Assembly (NCBI GenBank): GCA_964394855.1
Contig: CAYMZD010000001.1
Span: forward strand, 40,340-104,339
DNA: 64,000 bases
Reading direction: 5' to 3'
Source of the DNA: an uncultured Gammaproteobacteria bacterium
GTDB taxonomy: Bacteria; Patescibacteriota; Microgenomatia; Daviesbacterales; UBA10151
Shown: piece by piece, positions 15,377-41,073 of the stretch
Numbering within the stretch: the first letter of the stretch is position 1
Layout of the letters: every line of letters begins with the position of its first letter
Made by a program: the position numbers and the translations under genes
Notes under the pieces: generated by a model
Database searches by the model: none
The model's input: the letters and a program-made list of their open reading frames with translations, nothing else
What the model was told of the DNA's origin: nothing

Positions 15377-16666
15377 ATGAGATTACTCATCGCAATTCTA
15401 TTGGGAAAATTAATAGCCATCACTGTCCGAGGTTTTAGAATTGGTGGCGGTTCTGCTGCACCTGGACTTTGGGCCTTATTGATTGAACCTCATCTAGTTG
15501 AAAAGCTAATCAAGCAGATTCCCAAAAATGTGGTTATTACAGGCACCAATGGTAAAACCACCACAGCCAGAATATTGGCTCATTTGGCTAAAGAGGCAGG
15601 ATTAAAAGTTATCAGAAACCACACCGGCTCAAACTTGGAACGGGGCATTGCCTCTACACTAATTTCTAACTACCAGCTACTAACTACTAACTACCCACCT
15701 GATTTAGGGATTTGGGAACTGGATGAGGCGGCTTTTAACTCTGTTGTCCATAAAATCAAACCACAGGCGGTGGTTTTTTTGAATGTTTTCCGGGATCAAC
15801 TAGATAGATATGGCGAGATTGACACAGTGGTAAAAAATTGGTGTCAAACCCTGAAGTCTCTGAATAAAAAAACCGCGGTTTTAGTAAATGGTGATGATGC
15901 CAATACTTTGAAACTTCAGTCATGTTTTAAAGGCCAGGTGGAAACTTTTGGAGTGGAAGATTATAAAATTCATGGGGAAAACTTGGAACATAAAACCAAA
16001 AACTTGAAACTGGATTTTGAGGCTAAAGATGTTCTGGCAAATGGATTAAATAGCTTATCATTTCACATATCAAAATTTCTCGATCGAAGAAAAATGATAA
16101 ACATTTACGTAAAACTCCCTCTACCAGGATTTTATCATGTTTATGATGCCCTAGCTGCTATCGCTTCGGCCCATCTTTTGGGTTTCTCCACCCCTAAGTT
16201 AGTTAAGTCACTTAAGAATTTTTCTCCTGCTTTTGGCAGGGTGGAAAAATTACCATTTGGATTTATTTTTCTTATTAAAAATCCAGCCGGAGCAACCCAA
16301 GTTTTTGAAACAATTGCCCCAAATATCAAACAGGGAGATAGAGTTTTACTGGCTCTCAATGATAACTTGGCTGACGGAACAGATGTGTCTTGGATCTGGG
16401 ACAGCCAATTCGAACATCTTCCAAAGACTTATACTGTTGCATCAGGTAAAAGAGCCCATGATCTGGCTGTCCGCTTAAAATATGCCGGATTTGATCCTAA
16501 ACATATCCTAGTTGAACCTAACCTAAAAAAGGCTCTCAAAGAGGCTAGGACAGGCTTAAAAGGCCAGTTATTTATCTTACCTACTTATACTGCCATGCTG
16601 GAATTACAAGGTATTCTTGCCAAATCAGGCTTAAAGCCTCATTATTGGGAGGAAAACTTAAAATGA
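15377..16666 (+). CDS. murT: Lipid II isoglutaminyl synthase subunit MurT (Mur ligase central domain plus a DUF1727-like C-terminal domain)
   Basis: GTNGKTTT Mur-ligase P-loop. Sized and placed as the partner of the adjacent GatD homolog. Confidence 0.7.
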   Translation: MRLLIAILLGKLIAITVRGFRIGGGSAAPGLWALLIEPHLVEKLIKQIPKNVVITGTNGKTTTARILAHLAKEAGLKVIRNHTGSNLERGIASTLISNYQLLTTNYPPDLGIWELDEAAFNSVVHKIKPQAVVFLNVFRDQLDRYGEIDTVVKNWCQTLKSLNKKTAVLVNGDDANTLKLQSCFKGQVETFGVEDYKIHGENLEHKTKNLKLDFEAKDVLANGLNSLSFHISKFLDRRKMINIYVKLPLPGFYHVYDALAAIASAHLLGFSTPKLVKSLKNFSPAFGRVEKLPFGFIFLIKNPAGATQVFETIAPNIKQGDRVLLALNDNLADGTDVSWIWDSQFEHLPKTYTVASGKRAHDLAVRLKYAGFDPKHILVEPNLKKALKEARTGLKGQLFILPTYTAMLELQGILAKSGLKPHYWEENLK

Positions 16667-17391
16667 AGCTTATTATTGGTTATTTATATGGGAACTTAAT
16701 GAATATTTATGGAGACATGGGCAATATAATTGCTCTTAAAAAAAGGGCCCAGTGGAGAGGAATTGAGGTGAAAGTAGTTAATATTTCCTTAGGTGTCAAG
16801 CTATCCCACCCTCCAGGTGGGATAAAACCTGATATTTATTTTTTCGGAGGAGGGCAGGACCAGCAACAGGAAATAGTGGCAAATGATTTAAAAACAAAAG
16901 GTAAAATTATTAAGCAGGAGGTGGAAAGGGGAGTACCGCTTCTCTCGATTTGTGGAGGCTATCAACTGCTTGGAGAATACTATAAACCACACAAAGGACC
17001 AAAACTACCGGGCGTAGGACTATTTCCGGCTTATACCGCGGCCGGAGACAAAAGAATGATTGGCAATATTGTCATAGATTCTCAATTTGGAAAATTAGTC
17101 GGTTTTGAAAATCATTCAGGAAAAACATTTCTTAAAAAAGGAGCTCAATCTCTAGGGAAAGTAGTTAGGGGTTTTGGTAATAACGGAGAAGACCAAACAG
17201 AAGGCTGTATTTACAAAAATGCCATTGGCTGTTACATGCACGGCAGCTTACTTCCCAAAAATCCCCAGTTGGCTGACTGGCTACTACAAAAAGCCTTAGA
17301 AATTAAATATGGCCAGGAAATTGAGCTTCAACCCCTAGATGATATTTTAGAACTCCAAGCCCACCAAACAGCTATCAGCAAATTTGCTTGA
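16663..17391 (+). CDS. gatD: Lipid II isoglutaminyl synthase glutaminase subunit GatD (CobQ-type GATase)
   Basis: NLYGDMGNIIALKKRA, ICGGYQLLG, GFENHSGKT, GFGNN and YMHGSLLPKN segments parallel S. aureus GatD as recalled. Overlaps murT by 4 nt. Confidence 0.75.
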   Translation: MKLIIGYLYGNLMNIYGDMGNIIALKKRAQWRGIEVKVVNISLGVKLSHPPGGIKPDIYFFGGGQDQQQEIVANDLKTKGKIIKQEVERGVPLLSICGGYQLLGEYYKPHKGPKLPGVGLFPAYTAAGDKRMIGNIVIDSQFGKLVGFENHSGKTFLKKGAQSLGKVVRGFGNNGEDQTEGCIYKNAIGCYMHGSLLPKNPQLADWLLQKALEIKYGQEIELQPLDDILELQAHQTAISKFA

Positions 17392-23344: not shown

Positions 23345-24391
23345 GTGGAAGAAAAAATTTCTCAAATTCAAAAAAAGTTTTTAGAAAAGATTAAAGTGGC
23401 CCAGACTCTAAAAGAGCTGGATGAAATTTTTCTTGGACTTTTTGGGAAAAAAGGAGAGTTAACACTGCTGCCCAGGGAATTTCCCAAATTATCAGACGAG
23501 CAGCGCCGTAGTGTTGGACCTTTATTTAATTCTGTAAAGCAAAATTTGGAAGAAGAAATAGAAAAACGAAGGCAAGAAATTAGAGAAGAGGGATACAAAA
23601 AACTGGAAACAGAAAAGTTTACGCTGCAACCCTTAAGGTTGCCAGTTAAAAAAAGAAAAGGATTGATTCACCCCCTTGATCAATTTGAACAGGAAATTGT
23701 GGAACTATTTGCCAAAATCGGTTTCCAGCAATTTAGCGATGCTCCGGAAATTGACACTGATGAATATAACTTTGAGCTTCTCAATATACCAAAGGATCAT
23801 CCTGCAAGAGATCTCCAAGATACTCTGTATATAGCTACAAAAACTCAACAAGGCAAAGTACTTCTTCGAACCCAAACTTCAAATTCACAAGTCAGGATTT
23901 TAAGAAAGTATAAACCGCCCATTAGAATGATGGTTTTGGGTAGATGTTTTAGACATGAAAATCTGGATGCCAGACATGAGCACACCTTTGATCAATTCGA
24001 ATTAGTTTATGTTGATAAAAATTTAAGCATGGCTAATCTACAATATCTTTCGGAGTATTTTTTAAGGCATTTTCTAGGCAAAGATATTAAAGTTCGACTG
24101 CGCCCAAAATATTATCCTTTTGTGGAACCTGGAGTTGGCATTGATGGCTTGTGTATTTTTTGTAAAGGTCAAGGTTGTAAAGTCTGTGGAGGAGTGGGTT
24201 GGTTGGAAGTAGGCGGAGCCGGTATGATTCATCCTCAAATTTTAAGAAACGGTGGAATTAATCCCGATGAATATACCGGCATTGCATGGGGACCGGGACT
24301 GGAGCGAATTTTAATGCTAATGCATGGGGTAAACGATTTAAGGCTTTTTAGAAACGGAAATTTAAAGTTTTTGGAGCAATTTAAAAAATGA
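23345..24391 (+). CDS. pheS: Phenylalanyl-tRNA synthetase alpha subunit
   Basis: PARDLQDTLY, FRHENLDARHEHTFDQFE and YYPFVEPG...GWLEVGGAGMIHP motifs. Carries a Cys4 (CxxC-x4-CxxC) knuckle. Confidence 0.85.
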   Translation: MEEKISQIQKKFLEKIKVAQTLKELDEIFLGLFGKKGELTLLPREFPKLSDEQRRSVGPLFNSVKQNLEEEIEKRRQEIREEGYKKLETEKFTLQPLRLPVKKRKGLIHPLDQFEQEIVELFAKIGFQQFSDAPEIDTDEYNFELLNIPKDHPARDLQDTLYIATKTQQGKVLLRTQTSNSQVRILRKYKPPIRMMVLGRCFRHENLDARHEHTFDQFELVYVDKNLSMANLQYLSEYFLRHFLGKDIKVRLRPKYYPFVEPGVGIDGLCIFCKGQGCKVCGGVGWLEVGGAGMIHPQILRNGGINPDEYTGIAWGPGLERILMLMHGVNDLRLFRNGNLKFLEQFKK

Positions 24392-26034
24392 AAGTAAGTA
24401 TTAGTTGGTTAAAAGAATTGGTTGATTTAAAAGTTCCTGTTGAAGAACTGATAAGACTTTTGCCTCTTCGGACTATTGGCACCAAAGAAATTACAGATGA
24501 TTTTATAGAGCTAGATATGAAAGGCTATAACAGGGCTGATTTACTTTCCATGAGAGGAGTGGCTAGGGAAGTCGTTGCGATAACAGATTCAAAATTAAAT
24601 CTTAATGATGAGAAAACTGATTTTCCCGGTTTGCCAACAGTAGATGTAGATGTGCAAGATAAAAACCTTTGTCCTGTTTACTGCGTAGCAGCAATCGAAA
24701 ACCTTAAAGTTGAACACTCAAATGAGACATGGGTAAAAAAGTTATCCGACTGTGGAATACGCTCCATTAATAATGTGGCTGATGTTACCAATTTAGTGAT
24801 GCTGGAATATGGTCAACCCTTGCATGCTTTTGATGCCAGGGGGGTAAAAGACCAGGCAATTATTGTCCGGACAGCCGAAAAAGGAGAGAGAATAACTACA
24901 TTAGACGGGAAAACACGGGATTTAGATATTAGTGATTTATTAATAACTGATTCACAAAGTGCTTTAGGTTTGGCCGGAGTGATGGGAGGAAAAGATTCGG
25001 AAGTTTCTGATTCAACCACCGCAATTTTACTGGAAGCGGCCATTTTTGACCCGGTGTCTATTAGAAGAACCGCCCAAAGACATGGGCTTCCGTCTGAAGC
25101 TGCTAAAAGATTCCAGCATGGACTGACTAAAACTAATTTACTGCAGGCTTTAGCAGCAGCCATCAAAATGTATGAAAGCTTGGGTGGAAAATTAACCGCT
25201 ATCACGCTTATTGGTGACCTTGAAGATAAACCAAAAACCGTTAACCTCACTCAAGCAAAAATTAATTCTTTAATTGGGGTGGAAATATCACCCGAGCAGG
25301 TTGAAGAATACTTAAAAAGAGTGGGTGCCAACGTATCCCACCTGGAGGGTGGGTTAGCTTGGCACATTCTACCCCCTTATTGGAGGTTGGATATAGAAAT
25401 TGAGGAGGATTTAATTGAGGAGGTAGCCAGGATGTACGGGTATGAGAAAATTCCACCGCGAGAACTAGAAGGAGAGCTGCCCGAAAAAATTGACCAAAGT
25501 TTACCTAATTTCATTTATGATCTTAAAAAAACTCTCGCTGATGTTGGTCTAACTGAAGTACAAACCTATTCATTTTATTCAACAGATGTACTGAATAATC
25601 TGGAATGGAATAAGGAAAACTTGGTCAAAGTGGCTAATCCCATCTCATCTGAAACGCAGTATTTAAGAGATAATCTTTGGCCTAATCTTTTAGAAGTTGT
25701 GGCCAAAAATATCAAAAATGGTTTTAGGGATGTGGCCATTTTTGAAATAGGAAAAGTTTACCAGCCCCAACAAGATGATTTACCAAAAGAAAATTACAGA
25801 TTGTCCATAGCCGTAATGAATGGAACCGATAATCCATTACAAGAATTAAATCAAATTTACCAAGGTGTGAAGCTAGCACACCTCCAGGGTGTGCAGATGA
25901 AGAAAGAATATTTCCACCCGGTGAGGTTTTCTCCACCCCTAGCCGAAGTTCATCCCAGAATGGTTAATAAATTTGGTACAGACCAGCGAGTGGCCATTTT
26001 AGAGGTGGATTTTAATTCAATGATAGCGGCGTGA
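24388..26034 (+). CDS. pheT: Phenylalanyl-tRNA synthetase beta subunit, domain-reduced (548 aa). It lacks the N-terminal OB-fold and the C-terminal FDX-ACB domains.
   Basis: B3/4 region with NRADLLSMRGVAREV, B5 region with PPYWRLDIEIEEDLIEEVARMYGY, core region with FEIGKVY and HPRM. Coupled to pheS by a 4-nt overlap. Confidence 0.8.
   Translation: MKVSISWLKELVDLKVPVEELIRLLPLRTIGTKEITDDFIELDMKGYNRADLLSMRGVAREVVAITDSKLNLNDEKTDFPGLPTVDVDVQDKNLCPVYCVAAIENLKVEHSNETWVKKLSDCGIRSINNVADVTNLVMLEYGQPLHAFDARGVKDQAIIVRTAEKGERITTLDGKTRDLDISDLLITDSQSALGLAGVMGGKDSEVSDSTTAILLEAAIFDPVSIRRTAQRHGLPSEAAKRFQHGLTKTNLLQALAAAIKMYESLGGKLTAITLIGDLEDKPKTVNLTQAKINSLIGVEISPEQVEEYLKRVGANVSHLEGGLAWHILPPYWRLDIEIEEDLIEEVARMYGYEKIPPRELEGELPEKIDQSLPNFIYDLKKTLADVGLTEVQTYSFYSTDVLNNLEWNKENLVKVANPISSETQYLRDNLWPNLLEVVAKNIKNGFRDVAIFEIGKVYQPQQDDLPKENYRLSIAVMNGTDNPLQELNQIYQGVKLAHLQGVQMKKEYFHPVRFSPPLAEVHPRMVNKFGTDQRVAILEVDFNSMIAA
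25864..25893. repeat. REP-like element copy inside the pheT CDS (GGTGTGAAGCTAGCACACCTCCAGGGTGTG)
   Basis: About 28/30 identity to the REP at 40332-40360. Its 17-mer core is identical to 38744-38760. Confidence 0.7.
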
Positions 26035-37483: not shown

Positions 37484-38146
37484 ATGCGAATTAGCATCAT
37501 CACTTTATTCCCGGAAGTTTTTGACCCTATCTTACACTCATCTATTTTAAAAAGGGCTCAAAAAAAGGGGCTGGTTGAATTTGAATTAATTAATCTGCGT
37601 GATTTTGGGGAGGGAAAACACAAAGTAGTTGATGACCGCCCCTTTGGTGGGGGAGCAGGCATGATTTTGCGGGCAGACATTTTAACTAAAGCATTAAAAT
37701 CAATTAATCAGGGAAAAGTTATCTTAACCTCTGCATCTGGAAAAACATACAAACAGGCAGTGGCGCAAAAACTATCTAAGTTGGATCATATCATTATAGT
37801 TTGCGGTCATTATGAAGGGGTGGACCAAAGGTTTATAGATATTTATATTGATGAGGAAATCAGCATAGGGGATTATGTGTTAACTGGCGGGGAAATTCCT
37901 GCTATGGTGATAGTCGATTCTGTTGTTAGATTAATCCCCGGAGTTTTAGAAAAACCGGAAGCTACCCAAAATGAATCCTTTTCCCAGGGACTTCTAGAGT
38001 ACCCACAATATACCAGACCAGAGGAATTTGAAGGAGAAAAAGTACCCAAAGTTTTACTTTCCGGAAACCACGCTGAAATTGCCAAATGGCGAAATAAAAA
38101 ATCATTGGCAAAAACTAAAAAAATCCGCCCTGATTTACTCAAATAA
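37484..38146 (+). CDS. trmD: tRNA (guanine37-N1)-methyltransferase TrmD
   Basis: MRISIITLFPEVF N-terminus, a GGGAGM-type SAM region and ILTSASGK. Confidence 0.9.
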   Translation: MRISIITLFPEVFDPILHSSILKRAQKKGLVEFELINLRDFGEGKHKVVDDRPFGGGAGMILRADILTKALKSINQGKVILTSASGKTYKQAVAQKLSKLDHIIIVCGHYEGVDQRFIDIYIDEEISIGDYVLTGGEIPAMVIVDSVVRLIPGVLEKPEATQNESFSQGLLEYPQYTRPEEFEGEKVPKVLLSGNHAEIAKWRNKKSLAKTKKIRPDLLK

Positions 38147-38190
38147 ATACATATAGTTGTATAATTGTATAATGTAGTATAATATAAAAA

Positions 38191-38739
38191 ATGTCGAGAA
38201 TAGAGGATTTAGTCAAATATCAAGATAAAACAGCGAAGTTAAGCCTTCAAATTCAAAAAGGTATTAGAACTGGGGATACTGATTCTACATACGACGCACT
38301 GGCGCAATATACAGTACTAATGATCGCCGGGGGAGAATCCGTTAGAGATAAATCTGCAGAAGTACTCAATTCTCAATTATTTGCTCAAACCCTACAAGAA
38401 GCTATTGATTCAATCAGACAAGACCAACCAAGAAGAGGTCTTTCGGAATTATTGAAGTGGAATTCTCGGTGGGATGACTTAACGCCGGAAACAGTAGCAA
38501 CGGTACTTTTACCACCCCATCTTATGCCAATAGCAGTGCGTGCTATACGCGTTTGCAGAGATGCTTTTGACGATTCTGCTCAATTTATTTCCCCGCGCTT
38601 TAGGAAAAAACAAGCACAGGCTGTCTTGGGTTACCTAGATTGGGCACACGGACACATTAAAGATCCCACAAAACCTGTTAATCCAGGAGAAGCTTTTGAT
38701 GATTTTGGGTTGCAATCTATGCTCCCATTTAGACAGTAG
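38191..38739 (+). CDS. Hypothetical protein
   Basis: ORF only. AT-rich promoter-like region upstream (38147-38190). Confidence 0.4.
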   Translation: MSRIEDLVKYQDKTAKLSLQIQKGIRTGDTDSTYDALAQYTVLMIAGGESVRDKSAEVLNSQLFAQTLQEAIDSIRQDQPRRGLSELLKWNSRWDDLTPETVATVLLPPHLMPIAVRAIRVCRDAFDDSAQFISPRFRKKQAQAVLGYLDWAHGHIKDPTKPVNPGEAFDDFGLQSMLPFRQ

Positions 38740-38743
38740 TCTT

Positions 38744-38760
38744 CACACCTCCAGGGTGTG
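38744..38760. repeat. REP-like hairpin (CACACCTCCAGGGTGTG)
   Basis: 6-bp stem CACACC/GGTGTG around a 5-nt loop. Same family as 39590, 40344 and 25877. Confidence 0.7.
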
Positions 38761-38818
38761 GTAGTTCGAGGAGATCTGCTAACTTGACAATTATAAAATC
38801 CCATAATATAATTCCCTC

Positions 38819-39571
38819 ATGCCTGAAGTACTTTCATTTAAAACTCAATTAGAAGGGTTTGCCAAAAATCCTCTAGAGATAAGTGGACCCTCTGGTGTTG
38901 TGGCTGTACTTGCTTCCATGACACCTGATAATATCAATCCTCAAACATTACGTGATTTAATGGTTTCATCTCCGGTTGATGTACCTACTATTGTGGAAGA
39001 AACTCTCAGGGGATTATTTTTAATTGATCCTGATCAAGGAACAACTATGAGAGCTTTCACTGAGGAAGCTACGGTACTAGTATTTAACAATGGATTACCC
39101 GTTGGATATTACGAAATGGCTGACGGAGAGGTTCATAGAAACCACGGGGCTAAAGAATATGGGTACACCTTACTACCATATGCTGCTCGTAAAGGAGCAC
39201 GGAGATGGCATATGGAATTAAAAGGACCTGATTTAGGAGGAATGATGGGACTGTTTTGGAGTACTTATAGTATAAGAAAAAATTACGCGTATTTTAAAGA
39301 GCTTGGTCCTGAAAACGTTGGTGTTTTTATCGGAGATGCTGCTGTGAATCTAGATTCACATAGGTTGGTTATTGGAGTTAGCGGAGCCCAAATGACAGAG
39401 GAATTTTTAAGGTTTTTAACTGGAGGAAATGTAAAAGAACATACAATAGAACTTTTTGCTGGGATAGGCGATGAGGTTTTGGCTGAAGGAATAGCACAAA
39501 GAATTAAAGATCCACGGCTGGTAGTAGCTCGAATCCATCCTGACATACGGCAAATTTCCACTTGGCACTAA
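38819..39571 (+). CDS. Hypothetical protein
   Basis: ORF only. Bounded on both sides by REP-like hairpins. Confidence 0.4.
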   Translation: MPEVLSFKTQLEGFAKNPLEISGPSGVVAVLASMTPDNINPQTLRDLMVSSPVDVPTIVEETLRGLFLIDPDQGTTMRAFTEEATVLVFNNGLPVGYYEMADGEVHRNHGAKEYGYTLLPYAARKGARRWHMELKGPDLGGMMGLFWSTYSIRKNYAYFKELGPENVGVFIGDAAVNLDSHRLVIGVSGAQMTEEFLRFLTGGNVKEHTIELFAGIGDEVLAEGIAQRIKDPRLVVARIHPDIRQISTWH

Positions 39572-39589
39572 ACACACACCTTCATGTTG

Positions 39590-39606
39590 CACACATCCAA
39601 GGTGTG
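39590..39606. repeat. REP-like hairpin (CACACATCCAAGGTGTG) upstream of the RAYT gene
   Basis: Same motif family. Preceded by an additional CACACACC half-site at 39573-39580. Confidence 0.7.
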
Positions 39607-39647
39607 ATAGGTTGACACCTTAGTATTTTTACCATATTATTTTATTT

Positions 39648-40316
39648 ATGGCCTACAGAAAAACCCCAGTTGTAAATGGAGAGATATACCATGTTTACAA
39701 CAGAAGTAACGGACAACAAGAAATATTTTTATCCGCAAAAGATTATCAAAGAGCAATGGAAGTTTTTAGGTTCTACCTCTTTGGAAAACCATCTCTTCGC
39801 TTCTCCTTCTATAACCGTTTACCAAAAGACCAGAAACCTAAATACTTAGAAGGGTTATATTTAGGCAAGCCAATCGTAGATATAATCGGCTTTTGTTTAA
39901 TGCCTAATCATTTCCATTTTTTACTAAAGGGGCTGGAAGGAAAAGGAATAAATCAATTCATCAGCAATTTCCAAAATAGCTATGCCAAATATTTCAATAT
40001 TAAAATGACTCGTACTGGATCACTATTTCAGCAAAATTTTAGAGCTGTAAGAATTGAATCAGACGAACAACTTATTCACGTTTCCAGATACATTCATCTT
40101 AATCCTATTACAGCTTTTCTGGTTAGAACAATGGAGGAACTAGAACATTATCAATGGTCATCTTATCCTGATTATATACAAAGAGGGAAAACTTATATTA
40201 AAAAAGGTGTCGTTTTAGATCATTTTAGATCTATTGCAGATTATAAACAATTTATGGCCAACCAGATAGACTATCAAAGAAAATTAGACCGGATAAAGCA
40301 TTTACTAATGGAATAG
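39648..40316 (+). CDS. REP-associated tyrosine transposase (RAYT, IS200/IS605-like Y1 HUH transposase)
   Basis: GEIYHVYNRSNG beta-strand motif, MPNHFHFLL HUH motif, and RYIHLNPITAF...HYQWSSY carrying the catalytic Tyr. All parallel the RAYT/TnpA-REP family. Confidence 0.75.
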   Translation: MAYRKTPVVNGEIYHVYNRSNGQQEIFLSAKDYQRAMEVFRFYLFGKPSLRFSFYNRLPKDQKPKYLEGLYLGKPIVDIIGFCLMPNHFHFLLKGLEGKGINQFISNFQNSYAKYFNIKMTRTGSLFQQNFRAVRIESDEQLIHVSRYIHLNPITAFLVRTMEELEHYQWSSYPDYIQRGKTYIKKGVVLDHFRSIADYKQFMANQIDYQRKLDRIKHLLME

Positions 40317-40331
40317 TGCAGTTTTACTAGC

Positions 40332-40360
40332 GTGTGAACGTAGCACACATCCAAGGTGTG
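40332..40360. repeat. REP-like element (GTGTGAACGTAGCACACATCCAAGGTGTG) downstream of the RAYT gene
   Basis: Three-arm GTGTG/CACAC/GTGTG element, near-identical to the copy inside pheT. Confidence 0.7.
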
Positions 40361-40371
40361 TAATGACTACT

Positions 40372-41073
40372 CTATTCAAAGGGGTTGGATTTGCCGCGCG
40401 GTAAAGGCACATTTTGGCTGATACTACCTGTAGTTTTTTGAGCTTGAAACAATCTCACCAGTATCTTTTGCTCTTCATCAGAAATTTTTGGCAATGCCGC
40501 TTCTACAGAACCCAATTGCTGGGGATTGGAAGCAAAGAAAACTTCAATAGTTAAGTTGGCAGTAACTCCCCCAAATCCTTTAGCTGCTGACAAATCTATG
40601 GAACTAACTTTCATCACCCTAGAAGCTTTTTCTATACTCTCTACCAAACTTTCTAGGCCACTTTTTGAACCGAAGACTTCCAGTTTCATAGTGTAATTTG
40701 ATACTGCAGCAGCAGTGTTGGTTTGTACTTGTCCCAACTGAATTGTATTCAGACTTAAACCTGAACGGACAGTCAGATCTTGTAAAACCCCCACGATATC
40801 AGCAAAATCTTTATCTGGGGGTAGCGCGATAACGGAAATTTGCAATTGTTTTTTTAGCTCCTCTGTATTAATATTATTTAACTCTGCAGCTTTTACTTCT
40901 AGATTTTGCAGGCGTTGGGAAGAATTTTCCAGATTTTCTCTCTCTTTTAAATAACTTTTAAGCTGTGGCAAGATAACTGCTGCAATTAAAAACAAGCTAG
41001 CCACACCAATCAATACCGGGTAAATAATTATTTTATATTTAAGATAAAAGTTTATTAAACTTTCTTTTCTCAT
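40372..41073 (-). CDS. pilO: Type IV pilus assembly protein PilO-like
   Basis: Single N-terminal TM helix, a coiled coil and a periplasmic domain. Position after pilN. Confidence 0.5.
   Translation of the reverse strand: MRKESLINFYLKYKIIIYPVLIGVASLFLIAAVILPQLKSYLKERENLENSSQRLQNLEVKAAELNNINTEELKKQLQISVIALPPDKDFADIVGVLQDLTVRSGLSLNTIQLGQVQTNTAAAVSNYTMKLEVFGSKSGLESLVESIEKASRVMKVSSIDLSAAKGFGGVTANLTIEVFFASNPQQLGSVEAALPKISDEEQKILVRLFQAQKTTGSISQNVPLPRGKSNPFE

Follow-up and report, generated by a model that had tools for sequence, protein, structure and literature searches.

A 64,000-nucleotide stretch of contig CAYMZD010000001.1 (hereafter the window), from a Daviesbacterales genome of the candidate phyla radiation (CPR), contains a cassette of ∼0.8 kb, roughly 39573-40362, in which one gene for a Y1 HUH tyrosine transposase-like protein lies between 41-nt imperfect terminal inverted repeats. 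The cassette is both mobile and resident, and single copies of its terminal repeat stand elsewhere in the window, most of them in frame within genes. The best explanation of the locus, to which we assign a probability of about 0.6, is that it is a TIRYT-type Y1 cassette whose enzyme would move or copy 41-nt units in trans. A preliminary description of this DNA had proposed a REPtron, that is, a gene for a repetitive extragenic palindromic (REP)-associated tyrosine transposase (RAYT) bracketed by REP-like hairpins. What holds of that proposal is a RAYT-like Y1 HUH gene bracketed by dispersed palindromes; the flanks are 41-nt terminal inverted repeats and not canonical REPs.

The transposase-like gene (39648-40316, + strand) is the single Y1 gene copy within the 64-kb window and encodes 222 amino acids. 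The three RAYT hallmarks that had been reported for this open reading frame (ORF) are present in its translation as EIYHVYNR, MPNHFHFLL and SRYIHLNP...YQWSSY. The key residues are the HUH motif H88-F89-H90, the catalytic tyrosine Y148 within YIHLNP, F127-Q128 and W170-S171-S172. A profile search bears out the assignment: Pfam Y1_Tnp (PF01797) covers residues 77-150 with a score of 33.6 bits (E 4.7e-8), its gathering threshold being 23. Across 37 aligned homologues H88, H90, Y148, N152 and P153 never vary. The sole NCBIfam match of the protein is the equivalog REP_Tyr_transpos (NF047646), at 51 bits against a cutoff of 80. A single-sequence search of the PDB gave zero matches and a profile search gave weak ones (2xm3, E 0.006; 4er8, E 0.12), so that a search by fold was needed. 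The AlphaFold2 model (pLDDT 89.4) has as its best Foldseek match 4er8_A, the E. coli TnpA_REP with a REP hairpin (E 2e-7, TM 0.71 on the target), followed by the TnpA proteins of IS608 and ISDra2; the matches to 4er8, 2vjv and 2xma span E 2e-7 to 1e-4, with probability 1.00. The C-terminal part of the model consists of short helices and one long C-terminal helix (residues 196-221). Judged by its conserved residues and modeled fold, the protein is a Y1 HUH single-strand DNA enzyme on the RAYT side of the family, with predicted activity.

Within this family the protein signature (NHFH, FQ at 127-128, YIHLNP and W-S-S at 170-172) matches subclass 2.1 (Table 1, PMC6006769) and matches neither the E. 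coli subclass 2.2 nor the Pseudomonas subclass 2.5. Subclass 2.1 proteins carry NHVH or NH[YF]H, W[EQ] or FQ, YIELNP or Y[IV]HLNP and an SS proximal tail, at a median length of 238 aa; the class 2 Y motif is Y-x-x-x-N-P, and that of the IS200/IS605 enzymes, which are core-only proteins of ∼150 aa, is Y-x-x-x-Q (PMC6006769). Quentin et al. 2018 equate subclass 2.1 with the TIRYT of Di Nocera et al. 2013 (PMC6006769, PMC3733652), and it is also Group 1 of Bertels et al. 2017, the RAYT group that those authors found most insertion sequence (IS)-like apart from Group 6 (PMC5581495). TIRYT genes are flanked by terminal inverted repeats, forming TIRtrons, and not by GTAG REPs; some of these repeats are partly self-complementary and belong to moderately abundant families, and the majority of published ones contain the motif GGGGWSAS (PMC3733652). 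That motif has no match in the window repeat (AAGGTGTG), a match in the repeat of locus L128 (GGGGTGAG) and a near match in those of L126 and L130 (GGGGTGTG). By its own sequence motifs the protein fits TnpA_Y1 subclass 2.1, or the TIRYT type, and TIRtron would be the better label for the locus.

Homologues of the protein are numerous, exceeding 4000 at E<1e-5, and the top matches are 220-226 aa long. The few named top homologues come from Daviesbacteria, Microgenomates and Gottesmanbacteria, and the majority have no source name. An intact gene of this kind had been thought unusual in a CPR genome. That view holds for the literature only: among the papers searched, none that treats RAYT, TnpAREP or TIRYT also mentions CPR or Patescibacteria. 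The published RAYT and TIRYT surveys drew on complete genomes. Among the cassettes compared below, identity to the window protein is 82% for L113, 81% for L122, 63% for L123, 58% for L128, 57% for L126, 55% for L130, 45% for L048 (WWE3) and 43% for L057.

The repeats that bracket the gene are built around the exact palindrome CACACMTCCARGGTGTG, which occurs at 39590-39606, 40344-40360 and 38744-38760, as first described, and at a fourth site, 25877-25893, that the preliminary description had overlooked. All four copies are on the + strand, and the number of chance matches expected is 0.00 (100 dinucleotide-preserving shuffles). The extra arms noted beside the palindromes are likewise exact (GTGTG at 40332 and CACACACC at 39573). 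The palindrome forms the outer 17 nt of a 41-nt unit in which a spacer of 7-8 nt separates it from a GGTGTS/SACACC inner arm; the consensus across the window and the flanks of homologues is AAATACCAAGGTGTCAACCTAnCACACCTCCAGGGTGTG. With filters off, a covariance model of this unit (R1) detects six copies in the window at E<1e-4, and two of these are the cassette ends. The left terminal inverted repeat (39588-39628, - strand; 55.9 bits, E 2.9e-19) comprises the palindrome at 39590-39606 and the inner arm TTGACACCTTAGTA, and the right one (40322-40362, + strand; 44.3 bits, E 7e-15) comprises the arm GTGTG at 40332-40336 and the palindrome at 40344-40360. An outer extra arm, CACACACCTT (39573-39582, + strand), can pair with AAGGTGTG of the left palindrome in an 8-bp stem, and the left repeat with this arm folds as single-stranded DNA (ssDNA) at -10.7 kcal/mol (z -3.0). 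An Rfam search of 38000-40600 returned nothing meaningful.

The same architecture recurs around homologous genes. The unit stands in inverted orientation at both cassette ends in the window, L122, L123, L126, L128, L130, L113 and L057; the exception is L048, where the palindrome part alone recurs at both ends. The two ends of one cassette share essentially one palindrome variant, and the variant changes between clades: CACACmTCCArGGTGTG in the window, L122, L123 and L113, CACCCCnGGGGTG in L126, L128 and L130, and CCACCTCCGAGGTGG in L057. L122 and L057 are paralogues in one genome, JACOYD, and each has its own variant. A candidate rule that a TCCAA loop lies on the coding strand at both ends was dropped because the loops of L048 are truly inverted.

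Two of the source genomes deserve comment. JACOYD (GCA_016182055.1, Microgenomates) carries, in addition to its two Y1 paralogues, a near-consensus solo unit (L059, 1227-1267). The L113 cassette, with both repeats, lies on contig CAYUJR010000005.1 of a metagenome-assembled genome (MAG) labeled Gammaproteobacteria, which suggests that this contig is misbinned CPR DNA; a 1-nt frameshift close to the 5' end of its Y1 ORF points to either a pseudogene or an assembly error.

Comparison of syntenic loci indicates how the cassette has behaved. In the Levybacterium locus L130 it lies between recA and recX as an 834-nt insert after TAATTCCAC that includes both repeats and the gene. Two close relatives of this carrier, L151 and L153, with RecA 92-93% identical, have just 8-9 nt between recA and recX, reading TAA-ATCCACAA-ATG. 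From this clean empty site it follows that the cassette inserts as a discrete unit. No target-site duplication is recognizable at the L130 insert relative to L151 and L153, a comparison of one site with a very short intergenic spacer. Duplication-free insertion is expected of Y1 HUH elements, unlike DDE transposons with inverted-repeat ends. The L122, L123 and L130 cassettes occupy three contexts other than that of the window, and homologues 55-81% identical are found in five different contexts overall.

The cassette is also a long-term resident of one site. In three Daviesbacteria lineages (the window, L126 and L128) the gene lies in the same place, between trmD and a convergent pilO/N/M operon. 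Y1 identity among these three is 57-67%, compared with 66-77% for TrmD, 66-76% for PilM, 51-64% for S16 and 31-45% for the PilO-like protein, and L126 and L128 are the closest pair in four of the five proteins compared (TrmD is the exception). Because the Y1 divergence falls within the range of the flanking genes, with mostly the same closest pair, it fits long vertical inheritance.

The four remaining copies found by the covariance model are solo units, and three of them lie inside genes. One is in gatD (ORF 16663-17391) at 16783-16823 on the + strand, where it encodes SLGVKLSHPPGG (39.1 bits, E 7e-13). Two are in pheT (ORF 24388-26034), both on the + strand: a degenerate unit at site 1, 25315-25355, encoding VGANVSHLEGG (19.5 bits, E 1.8e-5), and a full unit at site 2, 25855-25895, encoding YQGVKLAHLQGV (53.7 bits, E 2e-18). 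The fourth is a partial unit on the - strand at 38742-38764 (model positions 19-41; 22.1 bits, E 1.9e-6), made up of the palindrome at 38744-38760 and a GTAG; it begins 5 nt past the stop codon of the ORFan at 38191-38739. The host genes are identified by matches of gatD to PDB 5n9m and 6gs2 (E 2e-54) and of pheT to TIGR00472. The gatD gene and murT, which together encode lipid II isoglutaminyl synthase (15377-17391), are adjacent with a 4-nt overlap, and are adjacent in L150 as well. Two palindrome subtypes are present: CACAC..GTGTG at the cassette ends, pheT site 2 and 38744, and CCCACC..GGTGGG in gatD and pheT site 1. The latter resembles the ends of other Y1 clades (L128 and L057), which hints, from the sequences, that a second cognate enzyme, past or unsampled, may have left it.

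Solo units are not confined to the window. A scan of genome contigs with the 17-mer returned at least 117 loci, mostly chance singletons, with nine CPR loci and a Bacteroidota repeat family among them. The CPR loci (by GTDB) have units in genes for a MurC-type ligase (L025), RecO (L029) and a membrane protein (L089) and between genes in L059, L088 and L111. In L128 a double-armed solo unit lies in the spacer that separates khpA from trmD. A strict composite pattern retrieved 18 metagenome loci, of which two adjoin a Y1 homologue and ∼9 lie inside long ORFs; the hosts include GT28/MurG-type, MurD-like, NifU-like, GT4 and MurT proteins. At 16 of the 18 loci the Y1 gene is absent from the examined DNA, and many of those contigs are short. 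About half of the solo units overall lie inside housekeeping genes. In the window the copies are neither numerous nor mainly intergenic, and they are not arranged like BIMEs: three out of four solo copies there fall within genes, in frame. Intragenic in-frame REPs are already known (PMC3733652).

The reading frame of the intragenic copies is uniform. The three in the window lie on the coding strand in phase 0 and encode GVKLSHPPGG (gatD), GVKLAHLQGV (pheT site 2) and GANVSHLEGG (pheT site 1). All 11 distinct gene-sites (gatD, the two in pheT, MurG-type GT28, MurD-like, MurC-type, MurT, NifU-like, RecO, GT4 and the membrane protein) read the palindrome as H-(L/P/I)-x-G-(G/V), in either unit orientation and in the same frame. 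At least two frames are free of stop codons, yet one is used, and this uniformity indicates selection or insertion bias.

Comparison with homologues demonstrates that the intragenic units are polymorphic for presence and absence. L150 is a syntenic Daviesbacteria locus (murT-gatD ... pheS-pheT, 70-75% amino-acid identity) with no complete unit across 21.6 kb. In codon alignments, the gatD unit is missing from L150 with a net +12 nt in the window, the pheT site 1 unit is missing with a net +18 nt, and at pheT site 2 L150 has a shifted palindrome only (HLGGV) with zero net length change. The gatD palindrome is also missing from 24 homologues, over which the window gains just 3-4 residues net. 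Both unit sites in Daviesbacteria PheT are length-hypervariable, with HLxGG/HPxGV peptides in many lineages, sometimes twice, and none in some. Conversely, a metagenomic MurT has a full unit where the MurT of the window has unrelated sequence of equal length. These codon alignments rule out the idea that the intragenic copies are clean 41-nt insertions.

The left repeat also appears to drive the gene. A promoter-like site, TTGACA-17-TATTAT (39612-39640, + strand; 11 of 12 consensus matches), lies within it and ends 7 nt before the ATG. TTGACA(CC) and a TAnnnT -10 box occur at the same distance in L122, L123, L126, L128 and L130. Since the -35 box is part of its inner arm, TTGACACC, the left repeat doubles as the promoter of the Y1 gene, and the left palindrome abuts that box. 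This arrangement predicts a Y1 mRNA that starts from the cassette's own repeat and is leaderless or nearly so.

Beside the cassette, between trmD and the left repeat, there is a slot whose content varies from lineage to lineage. It holds two ORFans in the window (38191-39571), one in L126 (9189-9866) and none in L128 (6423-6503); these ORFans have no Pfam or NCBIfam match and are mutually unrelated. For the local gene shuffling that the preliminary description had suspected, the differing content of this slot in the three syntenic lineages provides circumstantial support only. The second ORFan of the window (38819-39571) has its own sigma-70-type promoter, TTGACA-17-TATAAT (38784-38812, + strand; 12 of 12 consensus matches), located 6 nt before its ATG and 23 nt downstream of the solo palindrome at 38744-38760, a layout that mirrors the palindrome-promoter-ATG order of the Y1 gene. 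We claim no homology of this promoter region with the left repeat, as the spacers are unrelated beyond the palindrome, the GTAG and the consensus hexamers.

Some further features of the palindrome can be recorded here. Its C-variant copies (38744 and 25877) contain CACCTCC, the anti-Shine-Dalgarno core of 16S rRNA (e.g. 38746-38752 and 25879-25885), whose complement GGAGGTG is a strong Shine-Dalgarno sequence; the cassette-end copies have CACATCC instead. In all four exact copies the anti-Shine-Dalgarno-like (or CACATCC) sequence is on the + strand, which is the strand in whose sense the host genes read. The GC skew of the window tracks gene strand and so gives no replication direction. In Bacteroidota, the identical 17-mer CACACCTCCAAGGTGTG forms the core of longer palindromes with ∼12-bp stems (e.g. 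GTGTGGCACACCTCCAAGGTGTGCCACAC), several per genome: L018, L051, L064, L103 and L118 in the Saprospiraceae MAG CAZKBH, L010, L013, L021 and L036 in MAG JAZKFF, and L011 and L107 in the Chitinophagales MAG JBBRPD. These palindromes may reflect convergence, or a related Y1 enzyme of the same hairpin specificity.

A mechanism that would account for the locus can be outlined as follows. The Y1 enzyme would recognize the palindrome as an ssDNA hairpin, as TnpA_REP and IS608 TnpA do (4ER8, 2VJV), and would cut and rejoin single strands by means of Y148 and an H88/H90 metal site. In this way 41-nt units could be moved or copied in trans, much as REPs or miniature inverted-repeat transposable elements are, and the whole cassette could occasionally be moved. 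Located at the left palindrome, where it would abut the -35 box, the protein may regulate (repress) its own promoter. Selection would retain intragenic copies solely in tolerant loops and in the one harmless reading frame.

Several observations weigh against this explanation. The predicted ssDNA hairpins are modest (-5 to -9 kcal/mol), and the right repeat folds no better than shuffled sequence (z -0.7). In a covariation test the stem is 87% paired yet near-invariant, with one compensatory cell; a stem conserved by sequence without covariation is as compatible with a palindromic binding site in duplex DNA as with a hairpin. The net length change of the intragenic copies relative to homologues is 0-18 nt, and zero in MurT and pheT site 2, which calls for replacement, for conversion, or for an insertion with a later deletion. 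Unit density is low, with four solo copies in the 64 kb here and one in ∼100 kb of five related loci. Assignment to subclass 2.1 is based on motifs and not on phylogeny, and published surveys report no REP-like repeats for this subclass (PMC6006769). Its members are also reported with a C-terminal helix-turn-helix (HTH)-like domain (Bac_DnaA_C, HTH_23 or HTH_28; PMC6006769), and the window protein has no Pfam match outside residues 77-150 at E<=0.1.

The replacement-like signature of the intragenic copies allows a more radical proposal, which we regard as tentative and rather doubtful: that an active system in Microgenomates-group CPR repeatedly writes or overwrites short H-L-x-G-V-type loops in the surface regions encoded by essential genes, by ssDNA replacement patching. 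If true, subclass 2.1 enzymes would be agents of protein-loop turnover in minimal genomes, and ssDNA patching by replacement would be a mechanism not described for RAYTs, with an aminoacyl-tRNA synthetase, Mur ligases, GatD, RecO and NifU-like proteins among its targets.

The alternative that survives best, though we consider it unlikely, is an autonomous low-copy IS whose solo units are not mobilized in trans and are instead what decayed cassettes left behind, scars, or the outcome of recombination or gene conversion between copies. The empty site in Levybacteria demonstrates that the whole cassette inserts as a unit, the five contexts occupied by 55-81% identical homologues agree with such an element, Group 1 is among the most IS-like RAYTs (PMC5581495), and intragenic copies that replace host sequence instead of adding 41 nt would fit conversion. 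It is harder to explain in these terms why many unrelated genes contain one complete end as a solo unit and why several solo units are nearer to consensus than the right end of the cassette itself (53.7 versus 44.3 bits). A 0.8-kb cassette decaying within gatD, pheT or murG would leave no in-frame 41-nt remnant, and the cassette is stable at trmD/pilO across lineages whose Y1 proteins are just 57% identical.

A purely regulatory origin, in which the palindromes are DNA or RNA sites (operators, terminators or mRNA-stabilizing hairpins) unrelated to transposition, seems improbable. In its favor are the position of the left palindrome against the -35 box, the conservation of the palindrome by sequence rather than covariation, and the occurrence of copies 5, 19 and 28 nt past the stop codons of three consecutive + strand genes; REPs elsewhere act as terminators or stabilizers (PMC3733652). 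A terminator scan of the palindrome copies, however, made no terminator call and found no T-tract at any of them. Copies with conserved non-palindromic arms are found in unrelated coding sequences of several genomes, and around Y1 genes, however different the context, copies always stand as an inverted pair, gene and repeats having been inserted as one. The palindromes may nevertheless serve in regulation as well as in mobility.

We also find little room for a canonical REPtron, that is, a domesticated RAYT of the E. coli or Pseudomonas type that maintains a large, extragenic population of GTAG-tagged REPs or REPINs. The nearest fold is that of TnpA_REP, REP_Tyr_transpos is the sole NCBIfam match, palindromes flank the gene, and the one copy in the window, its conserved position and its co-divergence with neighboring genes are all REPtron-like. 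Canonical REPs typically number more than 100 copies per genome and are mostly extragenic. In the DNA examined here copy number is low, half of the solo copies are intragenic, and the window has no REPIN or BIME arrays. The 5' GT[AG]G tag is present in one of 18 aligned units (the right end in the window, GTAG), the position reading CTAC, CTAT, GTAC, CTAA or TTAC in the remainder; the NCBIfam score of 51 is below 80, the signature is that of subclass 2.1 and not 2.2 or 2.5, and the cassette is insertionally polymorphic in Levybacteria.

Finally, the idea that a selected peptide motif, GVKLxHLxGV, converged on similar DNA that is not homologous to the cassette repeats draws on the single frame and similar peptides of all intragenic copies, and it can be dismissed as very improbable because identity reaches synonymous positions and non-coding copies (34 of 41 nt between the pheT unit and the intergenic L059 unit, counted by eye in the alignment), and because the units lie in variable loops of unrelated host proteins, where close homologues lack the motif.

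A trans-acting TIRYT-type cassette would place the locus within, and extend, what is known of TIRtrons, REPs and Rickettsia palindromic elements (RPE); it is not a new principle. Subclass 2.1/Group 1 is the largest RAYT-like (class 2) subclass, with no function assigned, and has been reported without cognate dispersed repeats. The present locus adds CPR lineages to the hosts, a cognate unit of 41 nt made explicit for one clade of a subclass described as repeat-less, a promoter within the repeat, empty-site evidence, and a large share of intragenic copies, which keep to one reading frame and alter net length little. A large CPR clade combines a cognate repeat, a built-in promoter, a duplication-free empty site and solo units in essential genes of very small genomes. 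As the enzyme has a defined substrate, the small protein and a 41-nt oligonucleotide are open to testing in vitro. Streamlined as they are, CPR genomes too have protein loops shaped by selfish or domesticated repeats, as this locus shows.

Among known systems, the cassette is closest to the TIRtrons and their TIRYT enzymes. It shares with them a Y1 protein of ∼220-240 aa with the NH[YF]H, FQ, Y[IV]HLNP and SS motifs, terminal inverted repeats around the gene, low copy number and a somewhat IS-like character. It differs in its CPR host (Daviesbacteria), absent from the surveys, in a window repeat that reads AGGTGTG and not GGGGWSAS and that carries the promoter of the gene, in the in-frame location of about half of the dispersed units within housekeeping genes, and in a protein without a Pfam-detected C-terminal HTH-like domain.

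The E. coli REPtron and its TnpA_REP (4ER8; Nunvar 2010, Ton-Hoang 2012, Messing 2012) provide the best structural match and share the Y-x-x-x-N-P motif and a gene, present once in the window, whose flanking palindromic repeat occurs in dispersed copies as well; at trmD/pilO the gene is also conserved in position and diverges vertically. Identity to TnpA_REP is 15%, however, and the window protein has a longer C-terminal tail and, ahead of the HUH strand, an insertion of ∼55 aa after beta1. Unlike the E. coli REP, the repeat lacks the 5' GTAG tag in all but one of the aligned units, has stems of 5-6 bp rather than long bulged ones, and would number tens of copies at most, many of them intragenic, rather than hundreds. 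The IS200/IS605 elements (IS608, ISDra2) resemble the cassette in their Y1 HUH fold, hairpin-type ends, and insertion of the whole element without target-site duplication. In the window the Y motif is YxxxNP and not YxxxQ, the ends are true inverted repeats where those elements have subterminal hairpins, and the protein is ∼70 aa longer. IS200/IS605 elements often carry tnpB, which is found beside none of the eight cassettes examined, and they form multiple near-identical copies, whereas there is one cassette copy per locus or genome sampled.

The intragenic copies have their nearest counterparts in intragenic REPs and in the RPE reportedly described by Ogata et al. in 2000. In each case one short palindromic element is found across different genes and genomes, in frame in unrelated and often essential genes and presumably in tolerant loops. 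Compared with RPE-1, the window unit is much shorter (41 nt, 13-14 aa), brings almost no net gain in length at several sites, and is linked to a cognate Y1 gene.

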